From the NCBI GenBank assembly GCA_964410395.1, contig CAYPGS010000009.1, positions 6,038 through 70,037 on the forward strand: a stretch of DNA of 64,000 bases, in the 5' to 3' direction. Made by a program: the position numbers and the translations under genes. The DNA is from an uncultured bacterium (lineage in GTDB: Bacteria > Krumholzibacteriota > Krumholzibacteriia > JACNKJ01). The notes under the pieces were generated by a model that worked only from the letters and a program-made list of their open reading frames with translations, was not told where the DNA came from and made no database searches. Positions 9,946-63,705 of the stretch are shown one piece after another. Positions within the stretch are counted from its first letter, which is position 1. Each line of letters starts with the position of its first letter.

Positions 9946-13533
<3,588 letters not shown>

Positions 13534-13535
13534 GC

Positions 13536-13634
13536 CTCCAGCTACCAGCAGCCAGCTACCAGCCGGATCCTCGCATCTCATGTGCGAATGGGAGTATTCC
13601 GGCTGAAAGCTGGCAGCTGGGGGCTGGTAGCTCA
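13536..13634. repeat. CCAGCTN-heptamer inverted-repeat hairpin element, copy A (long form with nested central hairpins)
   Basis: Left arm CCAGCTA CCAGCAG CCAGCTA CCAGCCGG (13538-13566), right arm CCGGCTGAAAGCTGGCAGCTGGGGGCTGGTAGCTC (13599-13634); between PFOR stop and ACD start. Confidence 0.85.
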
Positions 13635-15756: not shown

Positions 15757-17626
15757 GGAGAAGAGCAGCATCGATCCCGCCTGGCAGGAGAAGTACGCCG
15801 ACCTGATCCTGAGCCCGAAGGAGGCGCTGGAGGGCATTCGTCCCGGACAGCGCGTCTTCGTCGGCACGGGATGCGCCCAGCCGCAGACCCTGGTCCAGGC
15901 CCTCGCGGACCGGGCCGGCGAACTGGCCGATACCGAGATCGTGCATCTGCTGACCTTCGGCGACGCGCCCTACGCGAAGAAGGAACTGGCATCGCAGTTC
16001 CGCGTGAACAGCTTCTTCATCGCCGACAACGTGCGCAGCATCATCCAGGAAGGCATGGGCGACTACACGCCCATCTTCCTGTCCGACATCCCCCGCCTCT
16101 TCAGCTCGGGACAGCTCCCTCTCGACGTGGCTCTCGTGCAGGTGACGCCGCCTGACGATCGCGGGCGCTGCAGCCTGGGCGTATCGGTGGACATCGTGAA
16201 AAGCGCCATGGCCAACGCCTCGCTGGTCATTGCCGAGGTGAATCCGCAGATGCCCCGCGTCCTGGGCAACAGCTTCGTGGACGTCTGGGATCTCGACGTC
16301 CTGGTTCCGATGGACGAGCCCGTTCTCGAACGACCTCCACGGGAGCCTGACGACCTCACCCGCAAGATCGGCGAGTACGTGGCCTCGCTGGTGGACGACG
16401 GCAGCACCCTGGAGCTCGGCATCGGGCGAATTCCCCACGCGGTGCTGGAGTTTCTCGGCGAGAAGAAGGACCTGGGCATCCACACCGAGATGCTCACCGA
16501 TGGGATCATCCCGATGATCGAATCAGGGGTGATCAATGGCAGCCGGAAGAGCCTGGACCGCGGGAAGATCGTGGCCAGCTTCTGCCTGGGCACGAAGAAG
16601 CTCTACGACTACATCGACGAGAATCCGAACATCGCCTTCCACCCCACCGAATACGTGAACGACCCCTTCGTGATCAGCCAGCAGAACAGGATGGTGGCCA
16701 TCAACGTGGCCCTCGAGGTGGATCTCACCGGACAGGTCTGCGCCGACTCCATCGGCTCGAAATTCTTCTCGGGCATCGGCGGGCAGGTCGACTTCAACCG
16801 CGGCGCCGCGCGCTCGGAGGGCGGCAAGGCCATCATCGCCATGCCCGCCACGGCACTGGCCGGCAAGAAGAGCCGCATCGTCTCGCAGCTCGCGCCGGGC
16901 GCCGGCGTGGTGACCACCCGTGGCGACGTGCACTACGTGGTAACCGAGTACGGTGTGGCCTACCTGCACGGAAAGAGCGTGCAGGACCGCGCACTGGCGC
17001 TGATCAGCATCGCCCATCCGGAGTTCCGGGCCGAGCTGCTGCGCGAGGCCATCGAGGCCAAGTACGTGAGCCCCGACAAGACGGGCGTGGAGGGACGTCT
17101 GGTGGTGGGGCCCCAGGAGCTTCGCAGCACCTACATCCTGGACGACGGAACGCCCATCGCCTTCCGGCCCATCCACCCCACCGACGAGCACAATCTGAAG
17201 GATCTCTACTACGCGCTGAGCCAGGAGACGATCTACTACCGCTTCATGCAAAATCTGAAACGGATTCCCCAGAAGCAGGTGCAGGACTTCGTCTTCATCG
17301 ACCACCGCAGCGACGTGGCCATCGTGGGCACACTGCCCGAGGCCCATGGCGAGCAGTTCGTGGCCATCGGCCGCTACTTCCTCGATCCGACTTCGAACCG
17401 GGCGGAGGTGGCCTTCGTGGTGAGGGACGAGTGGCAGAACCGGGGCATCGGCTCCTACCTGCTCAAGTCGCTCACGACCATCGCGCGGCGAAACGGTATC
17501 GGTGGTTTCACTGCGGAAGTGCTCAAGCAGAATCGCGCCATGCAGTCGGTCTTCAACAACAGCGGACTCAAGGTGAAGAGCCACCTCAAGGGCGAGGTCT
17601 GGCACTTCGATCTGGAGTTCAATTAA
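15743..17626 (+). CDS. acetyl-CoA hydrolase/transferase-family (4-hydroxybutyrate CoA-transferase-like) domain fused to C-terminal GNAT acetyltransferase domain
   Basis: 627 aa; overlaps acd stop by 14 nt; CoA-transferase signatures ...LELGIGRIPHAVL..., ...FFSGIGGQVDFNRGAARSEGGKAIIAMPAT...; C-terminal ~180 aa has GNAT motif A (WQNRGIGSYLLKSL). Confidence 0.7.
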   Translation: MAMIEEKSSIDPAWQEKYADLILSPKEALEGIRPGQRVFVGTGCAQPQTLVQALADRAGELADTEIVHLLTFGDAPYAKKELASQFRVNSFFIADNVRSIIQEGMGDYTPIFLSDIPRLFSSGQLPLDVALVQVTPPDDRGRCSLGVSVDIVKSAMANASLVIAEVNPQMPRVLGNSFVDVWDLDVLVPMDEPVLERPPREPDDLTRKIGEYVASLVDDGSTLELGIGRIPHAVLEFLGEKKDLGIHTEMLTDGIIPMIESGVINGSRKSLDRGKIVASFCLGTKKLYDYIDENPNIAFHPTEYVNDPFVISQQNRMVAINVALEVDLTGQVCADSIGSKFFSGIGGQVDFNRGAARSEGGKAIIAMPATALAGKKSRIVSQLAPGAGVVTTRGDVHYVVTEYGVAYLHGKSVQDRALALISIAHPEFRAELLREAIEAKYVSPDKTGVEGRLVVGPQELRSTYILDDGTPIAFRPIHPTDEHNLKDLYYALSQETIYYRFMQNLKRIPQKQVQDFVFIDHRSDVAIVGTLPEAHGEQFVAIGRYFLDPTSNRAEVAFVVRDEWQNRGIGSYLLKSLTTIARRNGIGGFTAEVLKQNRAMQSVFNNSGLKVKSHLKGEVWHFDLEFN

Positions 17627-17710
17627 CTTCAACTTGAACTCGAAATGAACTCCCCACCCCCATCCAACCGGTGGGGGTTCCTTCTTGTTCAAGTTCACGT
17701 TCAAGTTCAC
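17627..17710. promoter_or_regulatory. repeat-rich intergenic region: inverted GTTCAAGTT copy (17627-17639), hairpin CCCCCA-9nt-TGGGGG + T-rich tail (17657-17690, possible terminator of upstream operon), tandem GTTCAAGTTCAC x2 (17687-17710)
   Basis: All repeats read directly; lies upstream of first Cys-rich paralogue. Confidence 0.45.
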
Positions 17711-17777
17711 GTTTCTCATGATTCCGGTTCGCTTCTTGCAATTCCTCCAGCGGCACGCAATCACTGGAGGAGAATCA

Positions 17778-22738: not shown

Positions 22739-24829
22739 ATGAGTACCGACCTGAGCAAGGTCCGCAACATCGGCATCAGTGCGCATATCGACTCGGGGAA
22801 GACCACCCTGACCGAGCGGGTCCTTTTCTATACCGACCGCATCCACGCCATCCACGAGGTGCGCGGCAAGGACGGCGTCGGCGCCACCATGGACAGCATG
22901 GAGCTGGAGCGCGAGCGGGGCATCACCATCGCCTCGGCCGCCACCCACGTGGAGTGGGACGGCCACCACGTCAACATCATCGACACCCCCGGCCACGTGG
23001 ACTTCACCATCGAGGTGGAGCGCAGCCTGCGCGTGCTGGACGGCGCGGTGCTCATCCTCTGCGCCGTGGCCGGCGTGCAGAGCCAGTCCATCACCGTGGA
23101 CCGCCAGATGAAGCGTTACAAGGTCCCCCGCATCGCCTTCGTGAACAAATGCGATCGCTCGGGCGCCAACCCCTTCCGCGTGACCGACGGGCTCATCGAG
23201 AAGCTCGGTCACAACGCCGTGATGATGCAGATCCCCATCGGGCTCGAGGCTGATCACGAGGGCGTGGTCGACCTGATCAAGATGAAGGCCATCTACTTCG
23301 ACGGCGAGAGCGGCGAGACCATGCGCGAGGAGGACATCCCCGCGAACCTGCTGCCCGAGGCGGAACACCGCCGCGAGATGATGCTCGACGCCGTGTCCAT
23401 GTTCAGCGACGAGCTCATGGAGGCCATGCTCGAGGAGGCGGTCACCGAGGAGATGATCCACGAGGCCGTGCGCACGGGCACCCTGAGCCGCGAGCTGACC
23501 CCCGTCTTCATGGGATCGGCCTACAAGAACAAGGGCGTGCAGCCCCTGCTGAACGCCGTGCTCCGCTACCTGCCCGAGCCCCGCGAGATCGAGAACGAGG
23601 CCATCAGGCTCAACGGCGGCGACGAGGACGAGACCTTCGTGGTGAGCAACGATCCCGAGGATCCGGCCATCGCCCTGGCCTTCAAGCTGGAGGACGGGCA
23701 GTACGGGCAGCTCACCTACATCCGCATCTATCAGGGTTCGCTCAGCAAGGGCGACACGGTGAAGAACAACCGCACCGGCCAGAAGGTGAAGGTCGGCAGG
23801 CTCGTGCGCATGCACTCCAACAAAATGGAGGACATCGAGCGCGCCGAGGCCGGCGACATCGTCGCTCTCTTCGGCGTGGACTGCGCCTCGGGCGACACCT
23901 TCACCGCGCCGGACATCTCGGCCTCCATGGCCAGCATGCACGTACCCGATCCGGTGATCAGCCTTTCGGTGAAGCCCGTGGACAAGAAGGCCCAGGACAA
24001 CATGTCCAAGGCCCTCGGCCGCTTCACCCGCGAGGATCCCACCTTCCGCGTGGGCGCCGACGAGGAGACCGGTGACACGGTCATCCAGGGCATGGGCGAG
24101 CTTCACCTCGACGTCTACATCGAGCGCATGAAGCGCGAGTACAACGCCGAGGTCGAGGTCAGCCCGCCCCAGGTGAGCTACCGCGAGGCGCTCGGCAAGT
24201 CGGTGGCCTTCGACTACACCCACAAGAAGCAGACCGGCGGATCGGGACAGTACGCGAAGGTGCAGGGCGTTCTCGAGCCCCTCGCCGAGGGCGAGTTCGA
24301 GTTCGTGAACGAGGTGAAGGGCGGCAACATCCCCACCGAGTACATCGGCGCCGTTGAGAAGGGCTTCAAGGGTGCGCTGGACAAGGGCCCGGTGATCGGC
24401 GCCCACGTGGTCGGCGTGAAGGTCATCCTGCAGGACGGGAACAGCCACGCCGTGGACAGCTCCGACACCGCCTTCATGACCTGCGCCCGCGACGCCTTCC
24501 GCCAGTTCTATCCCAAGGGTGGACCCAAGGTACTCGAGCCGCTTATGCTCGTGTCGGTGGAGACCCCGCGGGAATTCCAGGGCGAGGCCATGGGCACGCT
24601 GATGCAGCGCCGGGCCATCGTGCTGGGTACCACGGAGGACGCGGGCTTCGTGCGCATCGACGCCGAGGTGCCGCTGTCGGAGATGTTCGGATACGCCACC
24701 GTGCTGCGTTCGGTGACCCAGGGCAAGGCGGGCTTCACCATGGAGTTCAAGCGTTACGCGCCGGCTCCTGCGGACGTGGCCGACGAGCTGAAGAAGCAGT
24801 ACCAGGAAAAACTCAAGGAAGGCAAATAG
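22739..24829 (+). CDS. elongation factor G paralogue (EF-G2-like translational GTPase)
   Basis: 696 aa; G1 [10 protein letters not shown]3 DTPGHVDF, G4 NKCD; distinct from the str-operon fusA at 48661-50733. Confidence 0.85.
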
Positions 24830-25556: not shown

Positions 25557-25584
25557 TTCCGGCCAGAACCCCCGCTTGAAAAAA

Positions 25585-25613
25585 CCCGGGTCCTGAGGGC
25601 CCGGGTTTTTTTT
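25585..25613 (+). terminator. rho-independent terminator (CCCGGG...CCCGGG + T8)
   Basis: aaaaaaCCCGGGtcctgagggCCCGGGtttttttt; marks left edge of lower-GC island. Confidence 0.8.
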
Positions 25614-46989: not shown

Positions 46990-47301
46990 TCAGACCTTGA
47001 TCTCGATGTCCACGCCCGCCGGCAGGTCCAGCTTCGTCAGCGCGTCCAGGGTCTGGGGGGATGATTTCGTGATCTCGATGAGGCGCTTGTGGATGCGCAT
47101 CTCGAACTGCTCGCGGCTCTTCTTGTCCACGTGGGGCGAGCGCAGCACGGTATAGAGGCTGCGCTGCGTGGGCAGCGGGATGGGTCCGGAGATCTCGGCG
47201 CCGGTCCGCTTGGCGGTGCGCACGATCTCGAAGGCGGACCTGTCCAGCGTCGCGCTCTCGTAGGCCTTGAGCCTGATCTTGATCTTCTGGCCAGTGTACA
47301 T
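46990..47301 (-). CDS. rpsJ: 30S ribosomal protein S10
   Basis: [45 protein letters not shown]... Confidence 0.93.
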
Positions 47302-47370: not shown

Positions 47371-47437
47371 AGCTACCAGCTTCCAGCTACCAGCGACCAG
47401 CTTCTTGCTGGCGGCTGGCAGCTGGCTGCAGGCGGCC
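47371..47437. repeat. CCAGCTN-heptamer inverted-repeat hairpin element, copy B (immediately 3' of tuf stop)
   Basis: AGCTACC AGCTTCC AGCTACC AGCGACC AGC - TTCTT - GCTGGCG GCTGGCA GCTGGCT GCAGGCGGCC; near-identical to copy D1 at 63642-63705. Confidence 0.85.
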
Positions 47438-47439
47438 TT

Positions 47440-48630
47440 TTACTCGTTGATCTTCGTCACCACGCCGGCGCCCACCGTGCGGCCGCCTTCACGGATCGCG
47501 AACCGAAGGTTCTCCTCCATCGCGATCGGCGTGATCAGCTCAACGTCCAGCTTAACATTGTCACCGGGCATCACCATCTCCGTGCCCTCAGGCAGCGTCG
47601 CAACACCCGTCACGTCCGTCGTACGGAAGTAGAACTGGGGACGGTAGCCCTGGAAGAAGGGAGTATGACGGCCGCCCTCTTCCTTCGTCAGGATGTAGAC
47701 CTCGCCCTCGAACTTCGTGTGAGGCGTCACGCTGCCAGGCTTCGCCAGCACCATGCCGCGCTCCAGGTCGCTCTTCTCCACGCCGCGAAGCAGAAGGCCC
47801 ACGTTGTCGCCAGCCTGGGCATCGTCCAGAAGCTTGCGGAACATCTCAACACCGGTCACCGTCGTCTCGAGCGTGTCACGGATGCCGATCCGCTGGACCT
47901 TGTCGCCCACCTTCACCACGCCGCGCTCGATACGGCCCGTGCCCACCGTGCCGCGACCCGTGATCGAGAAGACGTCCTCGACCGGCATCAGGAAGGGCTT
48001 GTCCGTGTCCCGCTCAGGCTCCGGAATGTAGCTGTCGATCGCTTCCAGAAGCTCGTCGATGCTCTTGTTTGCCGCATCGTCCTCAGGGTTGTTCAGGGCC
48101 TGAAGCGCGCTGCCCCGGATGACCGGAATGTCGTCGCCCGGGAACTCGTACTCGCTCAGAAGCTCGCGAACCTCGAGCTCCACCAGGTCCAACAGCTCTT
48201 CGTCGTCAACCTGGTCCACCTTGTTCATGTAGACCACCATGTAGGGAACGTTCACCTGACGACCCAGCAGAACGTGCTCGCGGGTCTGGGGCATCGGGCC
48301 GTCGGCCGCGCTCACCACCAGAACCGCGCCATCCATCTGAGCCGCACCCGTGATCATGTTCTTCACGTAGTCGGCGTGACCCGGGCAGTCAACGTGAGCG
48401 TAGTGACGGTTCTCCGTCTGGTACTCCACGTGAGCCGTCGCGATGGTGATGCCGCGCTCGCGCTCCTCAGGAGCCTTGTCGATCTCGTCGAAGGGCGTGA
48501 ACTCGGCAAGGCCCTTGGCGCCCTGACGCTGAGTGATCGCCGCCGTCAGCGTCGTCTTCCCGTGGTCAACGTGACCGATCGTACCCACGTTTACGTGCGG
48601 CTTTGTCCTCTCAAACTTCTCTTTCGCCAT
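47440..48630 (-). CDS. tuf: elongation factor Tu (str-operon copy)
   Basis: 396 aa; [32 protein letters not shown]... Confidence 0.97.
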
Positions 48631-50739: not shown

Positions 50740-50804
50740 AAAAAAACCCCTCCTGAGACCCTTCGACTTGTACATAGTCCTGCAGTCAAGGGTCTCAGGA
50801 GGGG
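50740..50804 (-). promoter_or_regulatory. terminator-like RNA hairpin in rpsG-fusA spacer: perfect 15-bp stem (CCCCUCCUGAGACCC ... GGGUCUCAGGAGGGG), 28-nt loop, then U7, ending 6 nt before fusA AUG; the 3' arm contains AGGAGG
   Basis: Plus-strand arms 50747-50761 and 50790-50804 are exact reverse complements; A7 at 50740-50746 (U7 on the minus-strand transcript). Confidence 0.6.
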
Positions 50805-50920
50805 TTTCCCTTTCGGGACCTTTTCCTGCAGGTATCGTCCTCCGGCGGTTCGGCCCGTCGATACTTGGGGCCTCGTTCACCGCTGCCGGCGGCTATGTAA
50901 GGGTCTTCCTTTCCTAGAGA

Positions 50921-51897: not shown

Positions 51898-51926
51898 AAA
51901 CTACTCGATAGGCCCTTGTTTGTCAA
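51898..51926 (-). promoter_or_regulatory. putative str-operon promoter TTGACA-17nt-TAGTTT on minus strand
   Basis: RC of 51921-51926 = TTGACA; RC of 51898-51903 = TAGTTT; located between rpoC terminator element and rpsL. Confidence 0.4.
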
Positions 51927-51942
51927 CCCGTTAGGGAATAAA

Positions 51943-52011
51943 AGCTACCAGCTTCCAGCTGCCAGCTACCGGCCAGAATCCGGCTGGGAGCTGGTTGCTG
52001 GCGGCTGGCCG
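51943..52011. repeat. CCAGCTN-heptamer inverted-repeat hairpin element, copy C (immediately 3' of rpoC stop)
   Basis: AGCTACC AGCTTCC AGCTGCC AGCTACC GGCC - AGAAT - CCGGCTGGGAGCTGGTTGCTGGCGGCTGGCCG. Confidence 0.85.
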
Positions 52012-56226
<4,215 letters not shown>

Positions 56227-60041: not shown

Positions 60042-60079
60042 AATGACCTCCGGCGGTCGCTTACGGTGAAGGCACGGAA

Positions 60080-60111
60080 CCCGTCCGGGCGGCAATGCCC
60101 CCCGGACGGGG
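60080..60111 (-). promoter_or_regulatory. GC-rich hairpin (10-bp stem CCCGUCCGGG/CCCGGACGGG) in rplL-rpoB spacer, candidate attenuator
   Basis: Inverted repeat read directly; weak U-tract; position analogous to the known rplL-rpoB attenuator of E. coli. Confidence 0.4.
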
Positions 60112-60144
60112 TCCTATCGACAAAAAAGAGGAATCGAGAGCTTC

Positions 60145-62433: not shown

Positions 62434-63240
62434 CTAGAGGGGTTCAACCTGGAGGAAGTCCAGTTCCACAGGCGTCTCCCTGCCGAAGATGGTCACCATG
62501 ACTTTCAGAGTTCCTCGCTCCTGGTTGACCTCGTCGACGATGCCGTTGAAATCGCTGAAGGGCCCGTCCATGACCTTCACGTGGTCGCCCACGTGATAGG
62601 GAATCTCGGTGGGCTTGTGCTCCGCGGGCCTCTCGATGCGCCCCAGAACCCGATCCACTTCGGCCGGACGCAGGGGCACCGGACGGCGGGACGGTTCGCG
62701 CGGGTCCAGACCCACGAAGCTCGTCACGCCGCTGATTCCATTGACGAGGTGATAGGCCTCGTCGCACATCTCCATCTCGACCAGGATGTAGCTCGGGAAG
62801 TACTTCCGCGTGGCGGTCGTCTTCTTCCCCTTCTTCATCTCCGTCACCTCTTCGGTGGGGATGAGAACCTGGCCGACCTTGTCCTCCATGCCCTCCAGGG
62901 CCACCCGGCGAAGCAGGTTTGTGCGCACCTTGTTCTCGTGTCCCGAGTAGGTGTGCACGGCGTACCACTTCAGCTTCGGGTTGCGAGGCGCTTCGGGCTG
63001 CTCGGGCACGGCCGCGGGCAGTTCCTCTTCGACCTCGTCGGAATCCTCTTCCTCGTCAGCCTCCGCTTCGACCTCCGCCGCCTCGAGAGTCTCCTCCTCG
63101 GCGGTTTCGGTTTCGTCCTTCTCGGGCTCGACGACCTCTTCGACCTCGCCCCCTCCCGCGAAAGGATTCTCAACGGGAGCGGAAGCCTCGGGCGCGACGC
63201 CTTCGGCTTCGGAAGCTATGTCCTTCTCCCGCTCTTCCAT
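62434..63240 (-). CDS. nusG: transcription termination/antitermination factor NusG with ~85-aa acidic N-terminal extension
   Basis: NGN + KOW core (...KLKWYAVHTYSGHENKV... ...HVGDHVKVMDGPFSDFNGIVDEV...) preceded by E/D-rich low-complexity region. Confidence 0.92.
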   Translation of the reverse strand: MEEREKDIASEAEGVAPEASAPVENPFAGGGEVEEVVEPEKDETETAEEETLEAAEVEAEADEEEDSDEVEEELPAAVPEQPEAPRNPKLKWYAVHTYSGHENKVRTNLLRRVALEGMEDKVGQVLIPTEEVTEMKKGKKTTATRKYFPSYILVEMEMCDEAYHLVNGISGVTSFVGLDPREPSRRPVPLRPAEVDRVLGRIERPAEHKPTEIPYHVGDHVKVMDGPFSDFNGIVDEVNQERGTLKVMVTIFGRETPVELDFLQVEPL

Positions 63241-63486: not shown

Positions 63487-63554
63487 CCAGCTTCCAGCTC
63501 CCAGCTCCCAGCTTCCAGCTTTCTGGCTGGCCGCTGGCTGCTGGCTGCTGGTGG
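63487..63554. repeat. CCAGCTN-heptamer inverted-repeat hairpin element, copy D2 (five perfect tandem heptamers; between tRNA-Trp and secE)
   Basis: CCAGCTT CCAGCTC CCAGCTC CCAGCTT CCAGC - TTTCT - GGCTGGC CGCTGGC TGCTGGC TGCTGGT GG. Confidence 0.85.
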
Positions 63555-63563
63555 CTTCTTCGG

Positions 63564-63637
63564 CAGGCCAGGAGGGATTCGAACCCCCAACATCCGGTTT
63601 TGGAGACCGGCGCTCTACCAATTAGAGCTACTGGCCT
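63564..63637 (-). tRNA. trnW: tRNA-Trp (anticodon CCA)
   Basis: RC reads AGGCCAGTAGCTCTAATTGGTAGAGCGCCGGTCTCCAAAACCGGATGTTGGGGGTTCGAATCCCTCCTGGCCTG: 7-bp acceptor stem, anticodon loop CUCCAAA, T-arm GGTTCGAATCC. Confidence 0.85.
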
Positions 63638-63641
63638 ACTG

Positions 63642-63705
63642 AGCTACCAGCTTCCAGCTACCAGCAGCCAGCTTCTTGCTGGAGGCTGGCAGCTGGCCGC
63701 TGGCC
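63642..63705. repeat. CCAGCTN-heptamer inverted-repeat hairpin element, copy D1 (3' of rpmG; near-identical to copy B)
   Basis: AGCTACC AGCTTCC AGCTACC AGCAGCC AGC - TTCTT - GCTGGAGGCTGGCAGCTGGCCGCTGGCC. Confidence 0.85.

Follow-up and report, generated by a model that had tools for sequence, protein, structure and literature searches.

Inverted pairs of tandem heptanucleotide repeats form hairpins past stop codons and keep their sites in close relatives while the repeat unit turns over

A 64,000-nt stretch of DNA from an uncultured bacterium of the Krumholzibacteriota (contig CAYPGS010000009.1, positions 6,038 to 70,037; hereafter the window) carries five intergenic hairpins, each composed of three to five tandem copies of the heptamer CCAGCNN, a loop, and three to five tandem copies of GCTGGNN. 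In close relatives, the sites of these elements and their 7-nt paired architecture are retained while the sequence of the unit turns over; where the unit changes, the two arms change in a compensatory way and every unit shows the same change, and copies within one genome are more alike than orthologous copies in different genomes. We give an even chance to the reading that the elements are tandem heptanucleotide repeats in inverted, hairpin-forming pairs, shaped by slippage and intersite copying under a pairing constraint. Xanthomonas has the nearest described counterpart, inverted pairs of GGGAATC heptamers, and the hairpins are a further member of that known class.

Five heptamer hairpins directly past stop codons

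A preliminary description of this DNA, made by a model from the letters alone, had listed five elements, and all five were confirmed in the sequence. Together with the tRNA gene that lies between two of them, they are arranged as follows.

Element A, 13536–13634, plus strand: (CCAGCNN)4 and (GCTGGNN)4 flanking a 45-nt inner hairpin, without a U-tract
Element B, 47371–47437, minus strand: lying between the stop codon of tuf (47440–47442) and rpsJ (start at 47301), without a U-tract on the transcribed strand
Element C, 51943–52011, minus strand: begins at the rpoC stop codon TAG (52012–52014), which overlaps the terminal partial unit
Element D1, 63487–63554, minus strand: lying between the 3′ end of tRNA-Trp and the ribosome-binding site (RBS) and ATG of secE, five units per arm
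tRNA-Trp (anticodon CCA), 63562–63637, minus strand: D2 on one side and D1 on the other
Element D2, 63642–63705, minus strand: lying between the stop codon of rpmG and the 5′ end of tRNA-Trp

All five arrays are paired with an inverted partner, and the elements stand directly past stop codons at cistron or operon boundaries, with offsets of 3–7 nt between stop codon and element. Element A follows the PFOR stop codon (13531–13533); downstream of it come the RBS and start codon (ATG, 13648) of a gene for an ADP-forming acyl-CoA synthetase-like protein. The stem of D2 ends about 4–6 nt upstream of the mature tRNA-Trp 5′ end. The earlier assignment of an intergenic family to gene 3′ ends (PFOR, tuf, rpoC, rpmG and tRNA-Trp) holds, and no array lies in the coding sequence of the window. 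Pfam confirms the identities of PFOR, the ADP-forming acyl-CoA synthetase-like protein, S10, S12 and SecE, whereas those of tuf, rpoC, rpmG and nusG come from annotated loci of relatives; an exact-protein look-up with the window tuf matched no record. The tRNA-Trp was confirmed as the sole Rfam match at gathering score in the whole window, and no Rfam family matched the elements at that score.

The arms had been described as CCAGCTN and NAGCTGG heptamers. Tandem 7-nt units are indeed present in both arms, but the right arms on the plus strand mostly read GCTGGCN and not NAGCTGG. Heptamer periodicity, on which the preliminary description had staked its finding, is borne out by Tandem Repeats Finder, which returns period 7 in every arm of the five elements. 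A search of the window for CCAGCNNCCAGCNNCCAGC with at most one mismatch, of the kind proposed earlier as a check of intergenic bias, gave 21 matches where dinucleotide-preserving shuffles predict 0.02; each of the 21 falls within one of the five elements and none in coding sequence. A two-unit scan of the window found no additional copies, and the bare pentamer CCAGC is, as expected, common outside the elements (147 occurrences in the window).

Folding, also proposed as a check, agrees with this architecture. As RNA, each element forms one long stem of −45 to −65 kcal/mol (z = −4.2 to −7.1), with −64.7 kcal/mol for A (z −6.0), −48.1 for B (z −6.6), −46.2 for C (z −4.2), −45.4 for D1 (z −5.6) and −53.4 for D2 (z −7.1). 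Along the stems, CCAGC:GCUGG helices of 5 bp alternate with 2-nt spacers; roughly half of the spacers are unpaired, and in D1 nearly all are. On its transcript strand, element B has the apical stem-loop CCAGC-AAGAA-GCUGG.

The near-identity reported for the tuf-side and rpmG-side copies is real: the same-strand identity between B and D2 is 88%, the TTCTT loop included. Pairwise, B, C, D1 and D2 are 73–88% identical on the same strand versus 65–70% to the reverse complement, which indicates a real shared polarity; these four copies lie in one co-oriented gene cluster, and the polarity of element A is ambiguous.

Occupied sites and changing units in close relatives

The relatives have an EF-G that is 87–93% identical to that of the window, with one, L326, at 76%, labelled Candidatus Krumholzibacteria, and four sites were compared, i.e., after rpoC, after tuf, after rpmG and between tRNA-Trp and secE. 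In this comparison, which the preliminary description had proposed as a check for lineage-specific insertions, all four sites are occupied in every examinable relative with EF-G identity of at least 87%, with other unit sequences, and the elements are absent from L326. The rpoC site reads as follows.

Window: (CCAGCNN)4
L318 (EF-G 92%): (CCGCCTA)5 / (GCGGNNN)4
L323 (EF-G 93%): (GAACTGR) / (YCCYAGT) arrays, 140 nt
L327 (EF-G 91%): 6-nt units, (TTGAAC)5 / (GTTCAN)4, with the TGA stop codon within the first unit
L325 (EF-G 87%): short CCAGCC...GGCTGG stem
L326 (EF-G 76%): no hairpin

Four to five T residues and the same downstream block are kept at this site in all compared genomes except L326. 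The multi-unit stems of the window, L318, L323 and L327 fold better than shuffled sequence, and the short stem of L325 is not above its shuffles (z −1.7). When L318, L323 and L327 are compared with one another, the flanking block is 97–99% and rpsL 96–97% identical, whereas the hairpin segment is only 43–50% identical.

At the sites after tuf and after rpmG, a relative has CCGCC-type hairpins where the window has the CCAGC type. The hairpins at the tRNA-Trp/secE site (D1) are homologous, and a C:G to U:A change recurs at the same position of four successive units. Identity between paralogous sites is 0.73–0.88 in the window and 0.67–0.70 in the relative, versus 0.55–0.65 between orthologous sites. 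In both genomes, the copies at the B and D2 sites have an apical stem-loop in common: that of the window reads CCAGC-AAGAA-GCUGG, that of the relative CCGCC-AGAGA-GCGG.

The unit that fills the rpoC site of L327 is also present in the window, in a sixth periodic hairpin.

Sixth periodic hairpin, 17622–17713, plus strand: 6-nt units, (AACTTS)3 ... (GTTCAM)4, enclosing a G+C-rich inner stem that has a T-rich tail

This hairpin (−36.2 kcal/mol, z −4.2) begins within the TAA stop codon of an acetyl-CoA hydrolase/transferase gene, and its TTGAAC/GTTCAA unit is the one found in L327.

Such replacements bear on a reading in which the elements are non-autonomous mobile elements, similar to REP/REPIN sequences or to MITEs (miniature inverted-repeat transposable elements), moved to post-stop sites or terminator hairpins by an enzyme encoded elsewhere, the heptamer slippage being mere secondary decoration. 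Whole cassettes swapped at the rpoC site between flanks that are 97–99% identical, and the TTGAAC family shared by window position 17622 and L327, are what mobility would produce, as are a unit and sometimes a loop common within a genome (B and D2), the loop and inner hairpin common to subfamilies described below, the occurrence of the CCAGC form in many phyla and an orientation that is random relative to transcription. However, the rpoC site shows neither a target-site duplication nor fixed termini in the three genomes compared, the element running from TAG directly to TTTT, and element ends are simply partial units; the idea of a target-site duplication was therefore dropped for this well-defined site. 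Furthermore, the D1 hairpins have been altered by substitution and not by replacement, no copies were found in 2.9 million viral contigs, and no transposase is present among the 27 non-ribosomal window proteins scanned, 64 kb being a small sample of the genome. We regard mobility as unlikely.

REPs act as RNA 3′ stabilisers or terminator-like barriers and depend on a RAYT (Y1 transposase) gene, which is typically REP-flanked. Like the REP/REPIN family (described in PMC3116915 and PMC2817692), the window elements are extragenic imperfect palindromes, often intercistronic or post-stop, with sequence classes that are genome-specific. The window has five copies in 64 kb, four of them (B, C, D1 and D2) 73–88% alike. 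A REP, however, is a single palindrome of 20–40 nt with a conserved head, e.g., GTAG, and no internal tandem periodicity, whereas the arms here are arrays of 3–13 units, and a variable unit number is not a REP trait.

A wider family of heptamer hairpins

A hairpin-pattern scan of GTDB species genomes returned at least 117 loci; the family statistics below concern the matches listed, from which, with the window, 152 elements were extracted, and gene context was counted with our own GC3-based gene caller. Most loci belong to Acidobacteriota, especially Vicinamibacterales. Cultured carriers are found in Chromatiaceae (Thiorhodococcus, Imhoffiella, Thiohalocapsa) and Deinococcus, and other bins are labelled Planctomycetota, Actinomycetota, Patescibacteria and others, some of which labels may reflect misbinning.

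The elements lie between co-oriented genes in 93 cases, convergent genes in 15 and divergent genes in 6, versus a background of 490, 84 and 82. Among the 139 copies adjoining a gene's 3′ end, 96 start 0–20 nt past the stop codon, and the offsets peak where a TAG shares bases with the partial unit at the end, as in tAGCNN-CCAGC. Arms most often have four units (72/152 left arms, 68/152 right arms), and four-unit arms outnumber three-unit arms although the detection threshold was three. Core positions are paired in 87% of cases and spacer positions in 51%, and variant cores are matched by the opposite arm (CCAGT/ACTGG, CCCGC/GCGGG, TCAGC/GCTGA, CTAGC/GCTAG). The end logo shows that elements end only in partial units.

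The period is not tied to one unit. Tandem-array hairpins in the element-bearing loci have period 7 in 128 cases, 20 of them with unrelated units, compared with two of period 6 and four of period 8; heptamer hairpin units unrelated to CCAGC in the same loci include GATTGNN, CGGAAGN, AATGCTG, ATTGCCN and AAATCCC. In a control of 1.2 Mb of unrelated rpoB loci, the numbers are three for period 7, one for period 6 and none for period 8. The control consists of metagenome contigs from an RpoB scan, in which the best relative among the matches listed was 63% identical and hence useless for orthologous sites. A relaxed scan for period 6 was swamped by codon periodicity and was discarded, while period 7 is clean.

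In Chromatiaceae (L129, L132, L145, L150, L159, L179, L190, L214, L219 and L231), the copies have the form (CCAGCTA)4-13, loop, (GCTGGCG)4-8, with unequal arms, e.g., 13 versus 4 units, and with spacers (TA versus CG) that are mismatched in every unit. Their loop is a conserved, non-palindromic 11-mer (gagatKatatc-like) common to Thiorhodococcus and Imhoffiella. The unequal arms would fit independent slippage of each arm. Within Acidobacteriota the unit numbers of the two arms, compared as a possible sign of selection, show no correlation.

A Vicinamibacterales subfamily (L130, L141, L174, L177, L183, L184, L193, L204, L221, L233 and L234, and also L126, L148 and L149) has CCAGC arms that enclose a further hairpin of the conserved form AAGGAAG-N5-CTTCCTT, in which a Shine-Dalgarno-like sequence pairs with an anti-Shine-Dalgarno-like one. 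The same subfamily is found in bins labelled cyanobacterium, Gemmatimonadales and Dehalococcoidia, and this suggests misbinning or transfer.

A separate case is L293 (ODUC01000149.1, 45% G+C), from an unrelated A+T-rich organism, in which 13 separate heptamer arrays (AATGACC, ACTAAYN, TCAAAAY and others) occupy 24 kb around rpoB, one of them as a hairpin pair.

For the viral contigs, the absence of matches was obtained with the hairpin-specific pattern. A loose pattern was set aside, as it gave mostly single matches there, and its multi-match loci were 21-nt-spaced tandem arrays without an inverted partner.

These data also bear on the idea that the elements are neutral by-products, i.e., that post-stop hairpins are hot spots of polymerase slippage or template switching and that functionless periodic arms persist where they are harmless. 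The rapid sequence turnover, the absence of elements from L326, the unequal arms in Chromatiaceae and the lack of strand bias in every test (below) are all compatible with such an origin, and a heptamer excess has been put down to polymerase slippage by Mrazek 2007, as that work is cited in PMC4692102. Against it, the four examined sites are occupied in all examinable relatives at EF-G identities of at least 87% despite full sequence turnover, core pairing is maintained by compensatory changes, and mismatched spacers are kept in every unit instead of being corrected to perfect palindromes. Moreover, four units as the commonest arm length recurs here and in Xanthomonas (PMC4692102). Neutrality is, in our judgment, quite unlikely.

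Proposed mechanism and evidence against it

In the mechanism that we propose, slipped-strand mispairing in steps of 7 nt would lengthen, shorten and homogenise the arms, and ectopic copying would spread families of units from site to site, the retained property being the pairing of the cores. For the rpoC copy, the role would be that of an intrinsic terminator stem. The remaining four would serve as intercistronic RNA stem-loops, as 3′-end protection or as processing barriers, two of them bracketing tRNA-Trp. A folded element may bring the upstream stop codon near the RBS of the next gene, and we propose that the elements are tolerated inside transcription units because of this fold-back.

Several observations weigh against slippage and copying under a pairing constraint. 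The first concerns polarity. All copies had been described as having the same orientation relative to the local transcript, and this had been taken to argue for function at the RNA level. A common orientation is uninformative, because the reverse complement of (CCAGCNN)n-loop-(NNGCTGG)n is the same pattern again, as holds for either strand of any such palindrome, and the argument is a tautology. The 93 copies between co-oriented genes show no strand bias: folding energy is better for the sense strand in 49 and for the antisense strand in 37 (Wilcoxon p = 0.28), G·U counts are 39 sense versus 36 antisense, and a downstream run of at least four T is found in 12/93 for sense and 7/93 for antisense. 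Arm polarity relative to transcription is divided 37 versus 31 (p = 0.54). With no bias, an RNA role fits no better than a DNA-level process or the lack of any function, and we infer every RNA-level role of the hairpins. Secondly, independent assemblies of the same species have identical arrays with no variation in unit number, so slippage is not fast on that timescale. Thirdly, full replacement of the unit between flanks that are 97–99% identical is hard to achieve by point mutation and slippage and points to cassette replacement, which keeps a dedicated mobilising mechanism in play. Finally, the mechanism does not account for the period of 7.

An alternative in which the period is designed invokes a dedicated trans-acting machine that makes the elements, copies them between post-stop sites and reads their 7-nt, 5+2 paired design, which would then not be an accident of slippage. 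The machine might be an enzyme or an RNA-binding protein with a 7-nt footprint and a specificity that drifts between lineages, and it would explain why there is one unit per genome, why different units occupy the sites of relatives and why the design recurs across phyla. We consider it quite unlikely.

Strand symmetry and the lack of transcript-strand bias would also be expected of arrays that act at the DNA level, whether as protein-binding sites or as cruciforms, with roles in Chi-like recombination, nucleoid organisation or the buffering of replication against transcription; a protein would then read double-stranded heptamers. Three 7-bp units make 21 bp, or two turns of B-DNA, and GCTGG is the first five bases of the Escherichia coli Chi octamer. 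The octamer itself, GCTGGTGG, is present at 63547–63554 in the right arm of D1, where it is probably a coincidence of the GCTGG unit. However, the unit differs between close relatives (CCAGC, CCGCC, GAACTG, TTGAAC), which excludes a fixed recognition sequence unless the protein co-evolves, and unrelated units coexist within one genome. In addition, so close a link to stop codons belongs to transcripts and translation and not to the chromosome. A DNA-level role is very unlikely. Two specific candidates, a fixed Chi-like site and NAG-N4 binding of the HutP type, were dropped as the units differ between relatives.

The rpoC copy and other terminator-like hairpins

Termination was among the roles suggested in the preliminary description. 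It is plausible for element C, the only window copy that is followed by a U-tract and for this reason terminator-like, whereas A, B, D1 and D2 have no U-tract and lead directly into the RBS of the next gene or into the tRNA. Two features adjoin element C.

U-tract UUUUAUU, 51937–51943, minus strand: directly 3′ of the element C stem
TTGACA hexamer, 51921–51926, minus strand: candidate −35 of an rpsL promoter; the block that holds it closely follows the probable terminator and is conserved among relatives

A run of four to five T is kept 3′ of the rpoC stem in L318, L323, L327 and L325 despite their different stems. Element C is probably the stem of the rpoC intrinsic terminator, judging from its sequence context: a G+C-rich stem, then a U-tract, at the end of rpoC and upstream of a promoter-like block. 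The assignment of TTGACA as a −35 element is a candidate one, and the block was not called by a consensus promoter scan. Compared with usual intrinsic terminators, with stems of 5–12 bp, the stem of element C is about 28 bp long, periodic and interrupted, and a U-tract is absent not only from the other four window copies but also from about 87% of the related copies among the matches listed.

An A6-stem-T6 palindrome at 25579–25611 (AAAAAACCCGGGTCCT / AGGGCCCGGGTTTTTT) resembles an ordinary bidirectional intrinsic terminator, and hence the genome uses conventional terminators as well. A perfect 20-bp inverted repeat at 50744–50807 (AAACCCCTCCTGAGACCCTT / AAGGGTCTCAGGAGGGGTTT) in the rpsG-fusA spacer is a candidate leader or attenuator of fusA; L318 keeps its sequence and has TTTTTTT after the second arm. 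At 60076–60114, in the rplL-rpoB spacer, a G+C-rich hairpin takes the position of the classical attenuator, and L325 has a similar one in the corresponding position. In contrast to the heptamer elements, the rpsG-fusA and rplL-rpoB hairpins, which are non-periodic, keep their sequence across the same relatives.

Comparison with known heptamer repeats

The preliminary description had recognised no named family. For the CCAGC unit this stands, since neither Rfam nor a literature search gave a description, the sequence-string search returning primer matches only, but the kind of element has been described in Xanthomonas. Rehm et al. 2015 (PMC4692102) reported GGGAATC heptamer arrays, of which 70–75 out of about 185 form convergent pairs capable of stem-loop formation. 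These arrays are favoured between open reading frames (ORFs) that are aligned, rare between divergent ORFs and located at most 50 bp from a stop codon or overlapping it, with a preference for four units; they occupy the same sites in two species with length variation, and were read by the authors as G-quadruplex formers (PMC4692102). The window hairpins and their relatives agree with them in the exact 7-nt tandem unit, the convergent stem-loop-forming arrays, the intergenic location mostly between co-oriented and seldom between divergent ORFs, the position near or overlapping a stop codon, the commonest length of four units, and the occupation of the same sites in related genomes by a varying array. 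They differ in the unit, which is CCAGCNN here (CCGCCTA, GAACTGR and others in relatives), is not G-rich and cannot form a G-quadruplex, in the pairing of all five arrays of the window, and in the occurrence of the family in other phyla. Replacement of the unit at orthologous sites and compensatory change in every unit are not reported for the Xanthomonas arrays (PMC4692102).

These shared features, i.e., heptamer period, inverted pairing, stop-codon position and four-unit preference, are what would favour G-quadruplex-forming repeats here too, as proposed for the heptamers of Xanthomonas and Nostoc. Neither strand of CCAGCNN/GCTGGNN, however, contains a run of three or more G, so that the sequence itself refutes the proposal for the present elements, and we assign it a negligible probability. 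G3 tracts are a trait of the GGGAATC subfamily and not of heptamer arrays generally, and a four-unit preference without G-quadruplex potential weakens the G-quadruplex reading of that feature in general.

Intergenic heptanucleotide simple sequence repeats are found elsewhere, the STRR repeats of cyanobacteria being a further example. TAACTGA direct repeats occur in Beggiatoaceae and cyanobacteria (PMC4679880), and the SPADE survey (bioRxiv 10.1101/309039) ranks heptamers first in abundance among the periodic intergenic repeats of prokaryotes and reports "no clear clue" to their function; heptamer over-representation is credited to the survey of Mrazek 2007 in the citation given by PMC4692102. 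These repeats have in common with the present elements the 7-nt period, the intergenic location and a patchy distribution over phyla. They are mostly direct, unstructured and often upstream of start codons, whereas the hairpins described here are obligate inverted pairs with long stems directly past stop codons.

Implications

The CCAGC hairpins are new here, whereas inverted intergenic heptamer pairs beside stop codons were already known from Xanthomonas (PMC4692102). What makes them most interesting is that relatives fill the same sites with different units. A comparative handle on this comes from the tuf/rpo/ribosomal-protein cluster, which is universally conserved and in which four sites stay occupied, in all close relatives examinable at each, while the unit is swapped or changes in concert with compensation. 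The recurrence of Xanthomonas-type stop position, inverted pairing and four-unit preference in a unit unable to form G-quadruplexes means that the G-quadruplex explanation is not general. Cultured carriers, i.e., Thiorhodococcus drewsii, Imhoffiella purpurea and Deinococcus murrayi, make experiments possible.

There are also practical consequences, as the hairpins lie near contig ends in several metagenome assemblies and can be read through as spurious ORF extensions. The same-species contigs L331–L333 all start inside tRNA-Trp, beside the hairpins, and the repeats may therefore break assemblies. Many contigs of relatives, about 15.4–16.3 kb long (L324, L326, L323/L328), run fusA-tuf-rpmG-tRNA-secE-nusG-... 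and begin at rplJ, and look like assemblies collapsed through two tuf copies.

Other features of the window

Outside the str operon, at 22739–24829, lies the gene of a second EF-G paralogue (696 aa), which has the complete set of EF-G domains. NusG (62434–63240) has 268 aa; relatives have an acidic low-complexity N-terminal extension of variable length, and lengths among homologues range from 250 to 287 aa.

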